IMG/VR virus record: IMGVR_UViG_3300044911_002081
Span: 1 to 25,339 of that record
DNA: 25,339 nucleotides
Reading direction: 5' to 3' (one strand)
From: a virus
Lineage: Duplodnaviria; Caudoviricetes
Shown here: one piece after another, positions 5,576-13,959 of the stretch
How positions within the stretch are numbered: position 1 is the first letter of the stretch
Layout: each line of letters begins with the position of its first letter
Made by a program: the position numbers and the translations under genes
The notes under the pieces: generated by a model
The model's input: only the letters and a program-made list of their open reading frames with translations
Databases searched by the model: none
Told to the model about the DNA's origin: nothing

Positions 5576-6505
5576 TCATGAAAAAATCATAACTTCGTCA
5601 TGAATCTTTGAGACTACGCTTGCCCAGATAGCTGGAGTATGGTCGAACGGTTGATAACCACCAGCTCCCCCGATGAGTACACGACCTTCCGAATAGGCAG
5701 AAGCAATACGACCGACTGTCGCAGCTGCATCTTCATATCCAGGATAGTCAAATTGTAAAGTAGATAGTGGATCTGACTTATGTGCGTCAGCTCCTGTAGC
5801 TACTAAAACAACATCTGGCTTTACCGTATCAGCAAGTTGTTCGATTTCTCCCATAGCTCTACGAAACTCATCATCACCGCTTGCTGGGTCTAATGCCCAG
5901 TTATAAACTCCGAGCTCAGGGAAGTGTCCCTTTAGCCCAGTGCCCGGGAAGATAACAGAATCGTGAATGCTGCAGGTAACCAAATCGGCAGAGCCTGACA
6001 GTAAGTTCTCGACGCCATCGCCGTGATGTGCGTCCCAGTCGATGTACATAACTTTCATACCGTTCTTCTGGAATTCACGTGCAGCCCAAGCCATATCGTT
6101 GAATACGCAGAAACCAGATGAGTGGTCGTACTGCGCATGATGCTTAGCTCCCTGAGGATTAAAGCCAACCTTCAGCTCGCCAGCTAACATCTTCTCAGTG
6201 AGACGAACAGTTCCCGCAAACATATGAAGAGCTACTTGTCCCATGTGCTTATTATCTGGGTACCATTGCCCACCTTTACCGCGGTCAATAACATCAGATA
6301 CATATTTCATATCGTGAATAGACTCAACACGTTCTCTGTCTCCAGCTTGAATATCTGGTTTTACAAGAACGATGTCTCTGTCTTCAGCAATAAGCTCCGT
6401 AGCGTACTTAGCTCTGACTGGATTAGTTGGGTGTGAGCTATCTGGCCCACCAAGCTTCCAGTCTAAGTAGATGTCGTCGTAAGCGACATGCAGTTTATTT
6501 TTCAT
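5576..6505 (-). CDS. Zn-dependent deacetylase, HDAC/AcuC family
   Basis: HPTNP, GAKHHA..SGFCVFND, IDWDAHHGDG, FPGTG, GADAH..DPL and GGY motifs. Confidence 0.92.
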   Translation of the reverse strand: MKNKLHVAYDDIYLDWKLGGPDSSHPTNPVRAKYATELIAEDRDIVLVKPDIQAGDRERVESIHDMKYVSDVIDRGKGGQWYPDNKHMGQVALHMFAGTVRLTEKMLAGELKVGFNPQGAKHHAQYDHSSGFCVFNDMAWAAREFQKNGMKVMYIDWDAHHGDGVENLLSGSADLVTCSIHDSVIFPGTGLKGHFPELGVYNWALDPASGDDEFRRAMGEIEQLADTVKPDVVLVATGADAHKSDPLSTLQFDYPGYEDAAATVGRIASAYSEGRVLIGGAGGYQPFDHTPAIWASVVSKIHDEVMIFS

Positions 6506-7007
6506 TTGTAGTTGTGTCCTTAATATGTAGGTAGTCAACAAAATCGTTGTTGAGTAACACTGCGTTAGATCTCTTGTCCCGCATCAACTGAATCGCATCA
6601 GCAGAAGAGTATCCTTCAAGCATGAGGGCAAGACCCATCGTTAAGCTAGAACGGTTAATCCCAGCTTGACAACGAATCAATACTCGCTTGCCAGATTTCC
6701 AAGCGGCATGTGCAAATGCAGCTGCCTCATGAAGTGAAGCGTAATCCGCATTGCCCTCAAGACCTGAGTCGTAAAAGCCATAACGAAGTTCTTGCACAAA
6801 CCAGTCAACTGGATTTGCCCAAGCGTAAAGAGTTACTACCGTATCGAAATCATCTTTAGTGATAGCACGAGATGTATGAATGTTTGCTGCATCCTCAATC
6901 GTGTCATCATCATCTGTTCCACCAAGAAATAATCCTGGAAGTATCTCACTCCATAGGGGGAAGTCCCAGTCAATATCGTGTACTGGTGCGTATGAAGCAT
7001 TAGTCAT
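6495..7007 (-). CDS. Dual-specificity protein phosphatase
   Basis: EILPGLFLG and VLIRCQAGINRS (CX5R); GGAGG RBS. Confidence 0.9.
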   Translation of the reverse strand: MTNASYAPVHDIDWDFPLWSEILPGLFLGGTDDDDTIEDAANIHTSRAITKDDFDTVVTLYAWANPVDWFVQELRYGFYDSGLEGNADYASLHEAAAFAHAAWKSGKRVLIRCQAGINRSSLTMGLALMLEGYSSADAIQLMRDKRSNAVLLNNDFVDYLHIKDTTTNEK

Positions 7008-7009
7008 TA

Positions 7010-7228
7010 CTACCCTCCGGTCATCTCTAACCAGCACTTAGGATGTATGCCAGAAATCATTTGTTCACGAATTGCAATGTCCATGTCTGGGAAAGCCTCT
7101 TGAATCAGCTTACCGAAATTCCACTCAAGGAATCCAATAGCTGGAACTTCGACAACTCCCTGCTCACCGCACATTCCGCATGCAGGAGTAGTGACTATGT
7201 AGGTTTCTTTTGATAGATCTGTAGACAT
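7010..7228 (-). CDS. Small zinc-binding protein
   Basis: CGMC...IQEAFPDM...REQMISGIHPKCW; promoter and start box upstream. Confidence 0.7.
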   Translation of the reverse strand: MSTDLSKETYIVTTPACGMCGEQGVVEVPAIGFLEWNFGKLIQEAFPDMDIAIREQMISGIHPKCWLEMTGG

Positions 7229-7291
7229 TTTCTTTGTCCTTTCGTCATTTGATATATCTATTATATCAGGTAATGTTACCCGCAAGTACCA

Positions 7292-7858
7292 TTACTCTTC
7301 TTGTATGTACGTATGAATCTCTCCACCGGAGTAGATGTCATGTTTGCAAGCAGCTTCAATAGCTCTCCGCAATACTTTCTCGGCAGCCTCCGGTGTCTTA
7401 ACCCTTTGGAAGTTAAGAGCTTCGAGAGCTCCAAGAGCTATATCGCCACCACTCCCTGAGTAGTAAACGTTCCTAGCTTCTCTGTCCCAGCTGTAATCAT
7501 TAAAGATAGGATAGATGACTCCGCGTACTGAAACTATTAAGTTAGAATCGTGCCAAGCTGCATCACCGTCTTCTTTACCTTCGAACCCAGCATCAACGAA
7601 AGCTTTGCGAAGTGACGGTATGAATTTTTTTGTCATAAAAACGTCGAGGTCTTCGCTACGAGTAGGAGTTGGAGGTTTCCAACCGAACTGCGCAATGTTT
7701 CCACCACGCGATGCACCAGACACAGCAATGAGAACTCCATTGTTGTCTACGATTTTATGAGTCGCAAGGTCCATGAAGCGACCGTCCTCATCAGATGCTC
7801 GTGAATCACAGCCGATGACTGACCAGCCATCACCTTGAATTGCCGCAAGCGTAGTCAT
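7292..7858 (-). CDS. HslV/proteasome-beta-like Ntn hydrolase
   Basis: N-terminal MTT (Thr nucleophile), DSR, GSGG..ALGAL, D.YSGG. Confidence 0.85.
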   Translation of the reverse strand: MTTLAAIQGDGWSVIGCDSRASDEDGRFMDLATHKIVDNNGVLIAVSGASRGGNIAQFGWKPPTPTRSEDLDVFMTKKFIPSLRKAFVDAGFEGKEDGDAAWHDSNLIVSVRGVIYPIFNDYSWDREARNVYYSGSGGDIALGALEALNFQRVKTPEAAEKVLRRAIEAACKHDIYSGGEIHTYIQEE

Positions 7859-9851: not shown

Positions 9852-10328
9852 TTAGTATGTATCTGGGAGAGTTTCCTTTAGCTCATCAAACTCACCGCTG
9901 AGGATTCTGTTTTGGACTTCTTCATCTGTGATGAGACCATAAGCCCAGAAAGTACTTTCTTTATTTAGGATATCTTGGAGGAAGTATAGGTATCTTTCTT
10001 CATCTTCATCCACTGATTCTGGGGATAGGTACTCGATACCATCAATCTCTTCATAGCCACCGATATCTAGGTGGTGGTAAGTATTATCTGGGTACCGAAG
10101 GAGGAACCCTTGACCATCATGCATTGCTATTACTACTGCTGTGTCTTGGGGTAGAGAAGGGTGCCAATACTGAATTGTGCCATCAAATTCCTTGATGCCA
10201 CCCTCAACTCGGTCTTCATCATTGATTCCTGCAAATCCTATGTTGCTGTAGATCTCTGAGAATGGTTTTCCTGGGACATCTTTGAATACTTGGTTAAAGA
10301 TTTCTGAGGGTGTTTGTTGATTCAACAT
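9852..10328 (-). CDS. Acidic hypothetical protein
   Basis: Long ORF behind the promoter at 10360. Confidence 0.75.
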   Translation of the reverse strand: MLNQQTPSEIFNQVFKDVPGKPFSEIYSNIGFAGINDEDRVEGGIKEFDGTIQYWHPSLPQDTAVVIAMHDGQGFLLRYPDNTYHHLDIGGYEEIDGIEYLSPESVDEDEERYLYFLQDILNKESTFWAYGLITDEEVQNRILSGEFDELKETLPDTY

Positions 10329-12261: not shown

Positions 12262-12370
12262 TTGGATCTCCAATCCGTAGGTGTTGTTAGGTTAATTATA
12301 TCATGGTTTTTAATAAATGCCTACGCGAAACGCGCGGCATGCAGAGCAGAGGCCGCGCGGACGCGATAGT

Positions 12371-12727
12371 TTATTCGAACGTGTCGACGTCGATTTGAGT
12401 TTCGAGGTTATACGAAAGTTCGGCGAAGTCAGTGTAGAGAGCGTAAACGTTATTTTCGAGCGGAACGAAAGTTTCGTTGTCGTCGAATTCGTCGAAGCCG
12501 GAATGGCCGATGAAGTGGTCAAGATGTTCGGCAGGGATGTTCAGGATTTGATAATCGTTGTAGCCGGCATTGACGGTGGAAACGAGTGTGATAGGCGAGT
12601 TAGGAAAGCGTTCGGCAAGAAATTGTAGAGCTACGGCGACGCAGAAAGCGTCGTTGAGCTTGACGTCGTGATTTGAGAGTGCAGGCATAGTTGCAGTTGT
12701 TTTTACGAAATCGTTTGCATTTTGCAT
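12371..12727 (-). CDS. Acidic protein, island family A
   Basis: Own promoter; MQNxNDF and LENxVY shared with 13171..13464. Confidence 0.8.
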   Translation of the reverse strand: MQNANDFVKTTATMPALSNHDVKLNDAFCVAVALQFLAERFPNSPITLVSTVNAGYNDYQILNIPAEHLDHFIGHSGFDEFDDNETFVPLENNVYALYTDFAELSYNLETQIDVDTFE

Positions 12728-12793
12728 GAAAGGCCCCTTTGTTTGTTTTTGTAATAATTGAATTATATCATGTTTAATTATAAATACGAACGT

Positions 12794-13063
12794 TTATAAA
12801 ATGTTAATTTCGTCGAGGAGTGCAGTTGGCAAGTGGGAAGCGCAGAAGGCGACGGAAGAGTCGATTGTGTAGAACGGAGTCGTAATGTTGAAGCTGGCAG
12901 AGCAAGCGTCGCAAGAAATGAGTGTGTCGTTTGTTTTTGCGAGAAGAAGAGAGAATTCAGAAAAGTCGAAGTCGATTTCAGAGTCGACGTAATCAGTAGT
13001 GAAGTCGATTTTTGCGTATGAGTCGTAATTGTTATTACGGATATTTGTTTGTGTGGTTGTCAT
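12794..13063 (-). CDS. Acidic Cys/His protein, island family B
   Basis: Own promoter and TTGGAG RBS; CxSHxPxALxDxIxxL terminus shared with 13567..13845. Confidence 0.8.
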   Translation of the reverse strand: MTTTQTNIRNNNYDSYAKIDFTTDYVDSEIDFDFSEFSLLLAKTNDTLISCDACSASFNITTPFYTIDSSVAFCASHLPTALLDEINIL

Positions 13064-13136
13064 GAAAATCTCCAATTCGTAATTTGTAATAAGTTAATTA
13101 TATCATGTTTATTATGTTTTTTGTAAATACGCGAAG

Positions 13137-13162
13137 GGCCGCGCAGTTGTGAGCTGCGCGGC
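13137..13162 (-). terminator. GC hairpin between island genes
   Basis: GCCGCGCAG/CTGCGCGGC stem, then a T-rich tail on the minus strand. Confidence 0.6.
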
Positions 13163-13170
13163 GCGAGCGT

Positions 13171-13464
13171 TTAGATGTAATCAGGAAACAGAGATTGAAG
13201 TTTAGAAATCGCAGCAGGGTTGAGATTTGCAGCGATTTCAGAAGGATTAGCGAGAAAAGAATAAACGTCGTTTTCGAGTTTTTCGTCAGTATCGGCGTTA
13301 AAGTAAAGATCGAGAAAGCCAGATGAGTCGGCAGGGATACGGAAAGTCATGTAGGTGTCGTAAGAGTTAGGGTACGAAGTATTTATGTATTCGATGTTTG
13401 TAAAGCCGGATTCAGAAATAAATTCAAAAGCTACGGAAGACGCGAAGTCGTTTGTGTTTTGCAT
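13171..13464 (-). CDS. Acidic protein, island family A
   Basis: Own promoter and TTGGAG RBS. Confidence 0.8.
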   Translation of the reverse strand: MQNTNDFASSVAFEFISESGFTNIEYINTSYPNSYDTYMTFRIPADSSGFLDLYFNADTDEKLENDVYSFLANPSEIAANLNPAAISKLQSLFPDYI

Positions 13465-13534
13465 GATGAAATCTCCAATTCGTTAGTTTGTAATATGTTT
13501 ATTATATCATGTTTATAATAAAATAAATACGAAA

Positions 13535-13554
13535 GGCCCAGCGTGAGCTGGGCC
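13535..13554 (-). terminator. GC hairpin between island genes
   Basis: GGCCCAGC/GCTGGGCC stem, then TTTCGTATTTATTTT. Confidence 0.7.
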
Positions 13555-13566
13555 AGTCGCGGCAGG

Positions 13567-13845
13567 TTACAGGGCTGCGATAAAGTCGCGGAGAGCTTGT
13601 GGCTGATGTGACAGGCAGTTAGTCATGATGGACTGGACAGGCGAGTCGTCGAGGAACGAAATTGACGGCAAGGTTTTTTTGTTGCAGTCGTCGAATTCGC
13701 AGTCGTAGTCAGTGTCAGTGAAGTTGATTTGGACGTTGTAGACGTCGTTGTTTTCGGCAGCGTCAAGGTCGTTGAAAAGCATTGGGTCGATTTCAAGAAC
13801 GAGTGCGTCAGCGGTTTTTTCGATGATTTTGATTTGTGCGGACAT
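13567..13845 (-). CDS. Acidic Cys/His protein, island family B
   Basis: Own promoter and GGAG RBS. Confidence 0.8.
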   Translation of the reverse strand: MSAQIKIIEKTADALVLEIDPMLFNDLDAAENNDVYNVQINFTDTDYDCEFDDCNKKTLPSISFLDDSPVQSIMTNCLSHQPQALRDFIAAL

Positions 13846-13959
13846 GATGTCTCCAGTCGTTATATTAACGTATTCGTTAATAAATGAATTATATCATGTT
13901 TATAATAAAAATATTACGAAAAGCCAGAGCGTTTTCGCGCCCTGGCCTCTCGCAACAAC

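Follow-up and report, generated by a model that had tools for sequence, protein, structure and literature searches.

The DNA analysed here, hereafter the window, is a fragment of 25,339 nucleotides (nt) from a freshwater actinophage (IMG/VR record IMGVR_UViG_3300044911_002081) whose terminase is 79% identical to that of Actinomycetia phage DSL-LC01. Between positions 12323 and 13935 it carries an island of four small genes, g1 to g4, in which the messenger RNA (mRNA)-sense strand is almost free of the dinucleotides AG and GG unless they stand in the tetranucleotide RGCY (R, purine; Y, pyrimidine). The feature is real, is selected and occurs in several phage lineages, and we infer its cause below. 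Its novelty is at the level of the pattern: no description of a strand-specific AG/GG ban was found among the accessible full texts, a body of literature from which most subscription journals are missing.

The 1,200 coding nt of g1 to g4 hold 13 CC or CT dinucleotides on the plus strand, 12 of them in RGCY context and the last in a GACT at position 13633; an earlier note, written from the letters of the window, had these counts exactly right. Read on the mRNA-sense strand, a single AG or GG (RG) lies outside RGCY. The codon-shuffled controls proposed in that note leave the depletion in place in all four versions, with 1 observed against 14.4 to 57.3 expected: 56.1 under genome codon usage (minimum draw 37), 57.3 when bases are shuffled, 31.7 when codon order is shuffled (minimum 19) and 14.4 when the genes' own synonymous codons are shuffled (minimum 6). 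Each control comprised 3,000 draws, and the lowest value in any draw was 6. Purine|G codon junctions number four, each within RGCY, against 31 expected; since these sites are depleted as well, the rule is independent of the reading frame. The same junction counts disagree with an avoidance tied to codon position, such as a ribosome-dependent mRNase of the RelE type would be expected to leave, and the frame-independent depletion rules out a codon-level effect of transfer RNAs. Four of the 47 genes tested in the window obey the rule; the remaining 43 show no depletion.

Over the whole island, the mRNA-sense strand carries 20 RGCY, no RGCR and 11 other RG sites. Nine of these 11 breaches fall in the four Shine-Dalgarno sites, one in a terminator stem (13538) and one inside g4. 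The exemption of RGCY is clear from a comparison of RGCY:RGCR (20:0) with YGCY:YGCR (36:34; p=1.7e-5), and the strand opposite to the mRNA sense is unconstrained. RGCY is also the specificity of M.CviJI-type methyltransferases. An assembly artefact or a composition effect is ruled out by the four shuffles, by public contigs from four runs that cover the island stretch piecewise, and by the orthologues described below. Avoidance of ultraviolet-induced dimers was rejected too: it would deplete template dipyrimidines, TT foremost, and the plus strand of the island is rich in TT and TC.

The four genes are low in G (11-16%) and encode acidic proteins. None contains Trp, those of g2 and g4 lack Gly, and each of the five Gly residues is encoded by GGC followed by a pyrimidine (AGY, IGH and three times SGF); a recount agrees exactly with the earlier note on these effects of the rule. 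Its remark that the island has the most AT-rich promoters of the window stands in part: the AT fraction of the island promoters is 0.66-0.83 over 35 nt, and one promoter outside the island reaches 0.71.

The island consists of one-gene cassettes in a shuffled array, and these are gained and lost. Relatives at 99% identity retain g4 and have g1 to g3 swapped for another rule-obeying gene, a relative at 88% has g1 only, and one at 87% has nothing at the island site. In public contigs from four runs the joints lie at promoter repeats, and two runs contain a clean loss of the g3 cassette. The rule is maintained by selection, as shown by four g1 orthologues that have undergone 48-72 substitutions and hold no forbidden site, against 5.3-6.0 in simulations (P(0) <= 0.001). 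The closest pair of g1 orthologues, with 19 substitutions, does not reach significance (P 0.075), and synonymous variability does not differ significantly between purine-ending and pyrimidine-ending two-fold sites (1/9 versus 24/60, p=0.14).

The island was also sought in related phages, as the earlier note had advised: several lineages carry rule-obeying genes, and orthologues keep the ban under selection. There are 31 matches to g1, 29 of them near-full-length homologues without Trp, and 21 homologues of g4. A scan for RG followed by A, G or T (RG[AGT]) covered 230 loci and the window, with 6,456 distinct ATG-started open reading frames (ORFs), spurious ones included; 34 of these have fewer than 0.005 RG[AGT] per base and are separate from the bulk. 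ORFs below 0.02 RG[AGT] per base with a promoter motif upstream make up a set of 31 relatives' genes (10,113 nt), from which apparent shadow-frame or low-complexity ORFs were left out, as were the genes of DSL-LC01 and of the relative G014, which were handled apart. The set contains 10 RG[AGT], 7 RGCR and 78 RGCY, or 6, 5 and 31 when homologous sites are counted once (RGCY over RGCR, p=0.0012); one gene per family gives 12 RGCY and 4 RGCR, numbers too small to separate. Six Trp residues occur in the set, where the rule is not absolute. By BLAST the 31 genes fall in seven families, g3 being grouped with g1 through a profile match (E 1.2e-7). The g2 and g4 families and three others align on C, C, P, C and H at 21-25% identity, a grouping that is tentative because profiles gave no cross-match. 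In the 55 nt past the stop codon, 16 of 315 G residues stand in RG[AGT] after island genes against 347 of 855 behind control genes that share the promoter, so that the rule runs past the stop codon into the hairpin stems. In some relatives the Shine-Dalgarno sequence itself is GAGCCC, which conforms to the rule.

Five RG-poor cassettes, single and dispersed, occur in DSL-LC01 and G014, with 15 RG[AGT], 20 RGCR and 15 RGCY. The exemption differs by lineage, being RGCY in the clade of the window and any RGC in these two phages (difference p=1.7e-4). One family (L007:31713-31922) is RG-poor in DSL-LC01, with 4 sites, and ordinary in G013, G014, G015 and G019, with 17-19; since it is RG-poor in one phage only, an ordinary gene can acquire the ban. 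In another RG-poor cassette (G014:C1:54482-54733) the ATG lies a few bases past a -10-like motif and two similar hairpins flank the unit, which is probably leaderless.

In the window, all four cassettes lie on the minus strand, and each gene has its own extended -10 motif and Shine-Dalgarno site, with a hairpin after three of the four. The gene g4 (13567-13845), which contains the single coding breach at 13633, encodes an acidic protein of 92 amino acids (aa) in which C49, C54, C77 and H80 form a predicted zinc site. The other three have no forbidden site: g3 (13171-13464) encodes an acidic protein of 97 aa and is a distant paralogue of g1; g2 (12794-13063) encodes one of 89 aa with a predicted zinc site at C51-x2-C54 and C74-x2-H77; and g1 (12371-12727), of family A, encodes one of 118 aa and includes five RGCY. 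The promoters are predicted by consensus match. That of g4 (13888-13931) has the extended -10 motif TGATATAAT at 13896-13888 with an A/T-rich tract upstream, and the same kind of motif is found in those of g3 (13501-13544, motif 13509-13501), g2 (13097-13140, motif 13105-13097) and g1 (12762-12805, motif 12770-12762). Sixteen copies of this motif occur between 8 and 20 kb of the window, four driving constrained genes and 12 unconstrained ones. The hairpin after g4 (13535-13554) is terminator-like and holds the stem breach at 13538; in the hairpin after g3 (13138-13162) every RG is within RGCY, and the same is true of the one after g1 (12331-12359), at the lower end of the island. The Shine-Dalgarno site of g1 (12734-12738) reads GGGG; the others lie at about 13070-13074 (g2), 13473-13477 (g3) and 13851-13855 (g4).

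A g1 domain also exists in a larger protein. The g1 profile, run against 1.84 billion proteins, gave nine matches, one of which lies in a protein of 2,021 aa (residues 677-766, E 5e-21) encoded on contig G006, which carries a stand-alone g1 too. On this contig the domain in the giant protein has 18 RG[AGT] in 273 nt against none in 375 nt for the stand-alone gene. Since the fused domain uses RG freely, the fold needs no ban, and the ban goes with the stand-alone cassette. The counterpart of the giant protein on contig G005 has no g1 domain. In G006 the domain (G006:C1:25731-26080, locus L291) has on either side a copy of a direct repeat, about 33 nt long, that encodes a Pro-rich linker, which suggests that it was captured by recombination. 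Giant proteins encoded after the portal gene span about 1,900-5,200 aa, and depending on the phage their domains are of kinase-like, ADP-ribosyltransferase, NUDIX, helicase or exonuclease type; that the homologues lie after the portal gene suggests that the protein may be packaged and injected.

The earlier note had also called for a search for C5-methyltransferase and glycosyltransferase genes, and these are present in a gene cluster of close relatives, outside the window. In DSL-LC01 the cluster comprises a predicted dCMP hydroxymethylase, a kinase, a glycosyltransferase, a UDP-galactopyranose mutase, a dUTPase-family protein and a C5-methyltransferase-like protein. The hydroxymethylase is a thymidylate-synthase homologue whose best match in PDB is the CMP hydroxymethylase MilA (E 2e-18). 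Its motif occurs in 11 records as RSND, with Asp kept at position 169 by our own mapping to the residues given in PMC13326640 (papers are cited here by PMC number, from the accessible parts of their texts); hydroxymethyl rather than 5-hydroxy is therefore predicted, and the D169N change of the 5-hydroxy-dCMP synthases of RB69 and RL38JI is not found. The C5-methyltransferase-like gene is present in most cluster-bearing relatives and absent from G013 and G031; compared with the canonical motifs, the enzyme keeps the catalytic ones, has an atypical motif I and carries Lys at the Asn of motif X. This atypical family (motif I DCNGL-x-x-F; L008:48374-49618 and homologues in L010-L032) stands beside the hydroxymethylase pathway and is also found in Gordonia phages Sixama, Forza, GodonK and GMA2 and in Micrococcus phage Kurnik. 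The glycosyltransferase GT1 has homologues in relatives and in T4-like phages, no match in Pfam or PDB, and is a predicted DNA glycosyltransferase. A second glycosyltransferase-like gene, GT2, persists without the hydroxymethylase in G016, G017, G018 and G041-G043, and may therefore not act on hydroxymethylcytosine DNA.

Neither the window nor G005 extends over the cluster region, and matches to the capsid gene gave no extension of G005. In the terminase tree G007, which carries a 4-kb island region, groups with G011 (100/100 support), and G006 with G012 (96/96); G007 and G011 share 81% nucleotide identity over 17.8 of 26.9 kb. Both G011 and G012 are complete and have the full cluster and no RG-free gene, and G011 lacks the entire 4-kb region of G007. 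Sixama likewise has the cluster and no RG-free gene, while DSL-LC01 and G014 combine hydroxymethylase and glycosyltransferase genes with RG-poor cassettes.

Avoidance of restriction sites was used as a proxy for modification, by comparing the observed-to-expected ratios (o/e) of C-containing palindromes in 26 records. The mean is 0.82-0.95 in 11 hydroxymethylase-positive records and 0.24-0.69 in nine without this gene, one of which, G019, lacks the replication region. All eight island records lie at 0.85-1.00 (window 0.93, G005 0.90). None of the nine site-avoiding records has a convincing RG-free gene, their low-RG ORFs being judged spurious by eye. The proxy is imperfect, as G016 and G021 reach 0.86-0.87 without a hydroxymethylase match; one hydrophobic gene of G016, with 4 sites in 210 nt, does look real. 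Palindromes of A and T only are avoided in DSL-LC01 (L007-L009; ATAT and TTAA o/e 0.00), G013 and G031, as expected if only cytosines are protected. Individual sites also vary: G017-G019 eliminate AGCT and GATC, GATC is scarce in the window, G005 and G013 (0.41, 0.57 and 0.17), and AGCT is in excess in the window and G005 (1.44 and 1.32).

The explanation we favour, to which we give a probability of about 0.4, is that these units are counter-defence cassettes whose template strand is free of the modified cytosines open to attack by a glycosylase or nickase of the host. Put more generally, and just as tentatively, phages with hypermodified cytosines may keep whole transcription units recoded as clean-template units, paying with Trp and most Gly, to leave one strand without marks open to the host's modification-reading defence; the ban would then read out the specificity of the DNA chemistry. 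It is possible, on similar odds, that the scheme includes an enzyme of the C5-methyltransferase fold, predicted to act on hydroxymethylcytosine at GpC. The window's phage would carry modified cytosines like its relatives, and its hydroxymethyl-sugar mark, or the recognition of that mark, would depend on context, with CY targeted and GpC exempt. A modification-dependent glycosylase, nickase or binder of the host would then damage or block the mark-bearing strand, turning marked template cytosines into single-strand lesions at which transcription stops. From a clean template a gene would still give mRNA, and its acidic product might inhibit the defence; fusion of the g1 domain to a predicted virion protein may be another way of delivery, comparable to that of the T4 internal proteins. 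Such a conditional attack would be free of cost in hosts without the enzyme, and where the enzyme is present an intact template would be needed by the inhibitor genes only; the two-peaked RG distribution, without a gradient in other early genes, fits conditional host attack. A DNA-level cause at template-strand cytosines is favoured because the exemption is palindromic, terminator stems are constrained and the genes are tied to modified-looking genomes. Precedents exist for the parts of this scheme: Brig1 excises glucosyl-hydroxymethylcytosine, its homologues are mostly in Actinobacteria, and the resulting abasic sites are proposed to impede transcription (PMC11078745), and T4 injects Ip1-3, which inhibit modification-dependent enzymes (PMC12373910).

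Several observations weigh against this explanation. Attack at CY elsewhere would harm the remainder of the genome within the same minutes. The Shine-Dalgarno sites breach the rule, as do about five sites in a DSL-LC01 leader; a trade-off is needed there in every model, and this is the best point in favour of an RNA-level cause. The association between island and modification (7/0 versus 7/9) has p=0.019 at face value and depends on phylogeny and on contig discovery. The window's island and the modification cluster are not linked on any contig, and none of the five island contigs, all fragments, has the methyltransferase. CY specificity is not reported in the accessible text on Brig1 (PMC11078745) or, in the sources available, for T4 glucosyltransferases. 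No function by homology came from Pfam, PHROGs, ESM Atlas (low scores only), Foldseek or VIA; the predicted models of g1 and g4 are confident (predicted local distance difference test 84.7 and 87.5) and have no fold match in PDB or BFVD (best Z 4.7 and 4.2), which does not make the folds new. An anti-defence role is predicted from anatomy, turnover, acidity and fusion. The host, the host enzyme and an inhibitor activity of the cassettes were not found; a genome scan for the host gave one phage-like contig in a Limnocylindrus metagenome-assembled genome at 60% identity, which was not used.

Somewhat unlikely in our estimation, a bulky mark of the phage at template CY might itself stall host RNA polymerase until an injected factor or replication relieves it, so that genes of the first minutes are purged. 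Every DNA-level observation (exemption, stems, cluster) supports this account too. Early genes of T4, however, are transcribed from glucosyl-hydroxymethylcytosine DNA. A direct block is also weakened because it should leave synonymous depletion in other early genes, and the 12 other genes with the same promoter are undepleted, even synonymously; moreover, RG-free genes are absent from G011 and G012, whose glycosyltransferase shares 70-72% identity with that of G014. Bulkier major-groove modifications do inhibit bacterial RNA polymerase, and those on the template strand are tolerated less by T7 polymerase, although the effect described in the accessible text is mainly at promoters (PMC11550810). 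The earlier note had combined such a block with immediate-early genes and a competing GpC methyltransferase. Its template-strand cytosine and GpC exemption gain support from the palindrome, the stems and the relatives' cluster, and its alternative of a strand-specific nickase comes nearer to the host attack favoured here. The immediate-early, polymerase-bypass part has lost ground: 12 same-promoter genes are undepleted, the cassettes come and go, and such genes are missing from the cluster-bearing G011 and G012. An essential early regulon is ruled out by the unconstrained same-promoter genes and the absence of cassettes from close complete relatives. A conventional competing methyltransferase is doubtful because the cofactor site is atypical and the hydroxymethylase would already occupy C5.

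Less probable again is a host toxin that cuts or modifies single-stranded mRNA at AG or GG not followed by C, the cassettes then encoding inhibitors in immune messages, a situation for which ACA-less genes under MazF offer a natural counterpart. The depletion is indeed frame-independent, limited to the mRNA sense and confined to accessory genes, and the Shine-Dalgarno sites escape the rule as though ribosomes protected them. Against this stand the double-stranded terminator stems, which obey the rule, the palindromic exemption in the window clade and the lack of such genes in the nine unmodified-looking records. The mRNA ADP-ribosyltransferase system CmdTAC demonstrates that a dinucleotide-specific, frame-independent attack on messages exists; CmdT, however, targets GA in single-stranded RNA and spares double-stranded RNA, as far as the accessible text describes it (PMC11618068). 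Here AG and GG are banned, stems obey and GA is abundant, with 451 CGA and 129 TGA in the 31 genes.

It is quite improbable that the mark sits on the coding-strand guanine of RG, as in a modification of the 7-deazaguanine or ADP-ribose type, or that some other chemistry is at work, even if sequence cannot say which base of the G:C pair matters. ADP-ribosyltransferase domains do occur in the giant proteins of some relatives (Sixama gp75, G015), but these genomes are island-free and the domain is absent from the giant proteins of G005, DSL-LC01 and G014. The cluster found acts on cytosine, and no DpdA or queuosine-pathway gene is named in the annotations of DSL-LC01 or Sixama, no dedicated or profile search having been made. 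A toxin injected by the phage itself was rejected as the cause on similar grounds, since Pfam searches of 16 large proteins or pieces gave ADP-ribosyltransferase domains only in Sixama and G015. Finally, a composition inherited from a donor element, or due to acidity or mutation bias without present selection, would suit genes that are acidic and low in G, but is very improbable given that shuffles keeping amino acids, codons or bases all fail, that g1 orthologues keep no forbidden site after 48-72 substitutions, that the g1 domain of the giant protein uses RG freely and that a family with few RG in DSL-LC01 has normal numbers in four other phages.

The cassettes can be compared with several known systems. 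Classical restriction-site avoidance in phage genomes also removes a short motif by selection; it is two-stranded, genome-wide and directed against palindromes, as seen in G017-G019, whereas the island rule acts on one strand of four in 47 genes, leaves the opposite strand free and allows a palindrome. T4 Ip1-3, which counter GmrSD type IV restriction, are likewise small, variable and non-essential, number several per genome and are encoded by a modified-cytosine phage (PMC12373910). They are delivered in the virion, a route predicted here only for the g1 domain of the giant post-portal protein, and no strand-specific dinucleotide ban is reported for the ip genes in the accessible text, in contrast to the stand-alone promoter-gene-hairpin cassettes with their ban. 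No sequence or fold match links g1 or g4 to a known anti-defence protein. Brig1 is a host enzyme making single-strand lesions at modified cytosines, the type of attacker that the clean-template explanation needs (PMC11078745); no such enzyme was located in the host of the window's phage, and the accessible text reports no sequence-level escape from Brig1 by phages. Like the T-even and RL38JI pathways, that of the relatives combines a kinase, glycosyltransferases and a dUTPase-family pyrophosphatase with a thymidylate-synthase homologue whose active site has the cytosine-type Asp, and DSL-LC01 shares with RL38JI the UDP-galactopyranose mutase (PMC13326640); most relatives differ by an extra C5-methyltransferase-like gene, and the window's contig does not include the cluster. 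CmoX, a cytosine carboxymethyltransferase, has the same C5-methyltransferase fold and a basic residue at the position of M.HhaI N304, Arg in CmoX and Lys here by our own mapping, and it acts on GC, the context exempt in the island (PMC12783734). The clade enzyme has GCPPC and GKAV instead of the SPPC and Arg described for CmoX in that text, and neither CmoA nor CmoY is named in the DSL-LC01 annotation or in a Pfam scan of the neighbours, no dedicated search having been made.

If the clean-template explanation is true, DNA hypermodification carries a cost strong enough to rewrite protein sequences, together with a way round it, and a strand-specific dinucleotide scan would flag homologue-less anti-defence genes and predict modification sites. 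Under any of the other explanations, the pattern still indicates an RG- or CY-specific activity in freshwater actinobacteria or their phages.

Some further observations concern other parts of these genomes. In the relatives, the gap between terminase and portal genes contains strongly strand-biased degenerate repeat tracts (L007:46150-46800, G013:C1:47400-47800 and G015:C1:47350-47850), alternating between CA and CG in DSL-LC01, which are possibly genome ends or packaging signals. In the window, a gene at 9852-10325 has 5 CG where genome codon usage predicts 22.7 (z -4.9), has no ACG against 9.5 expected, and is replaced in the 88% and 87% relatives; a recent import of low GC content, or a second ban on a motif, could account for this. 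Upstream of the terminase, genes for a histone-deacetylase-family protein, a dual-specificity phosphatase and an HslV/proteasome subunit lie side by side (5576-7858).

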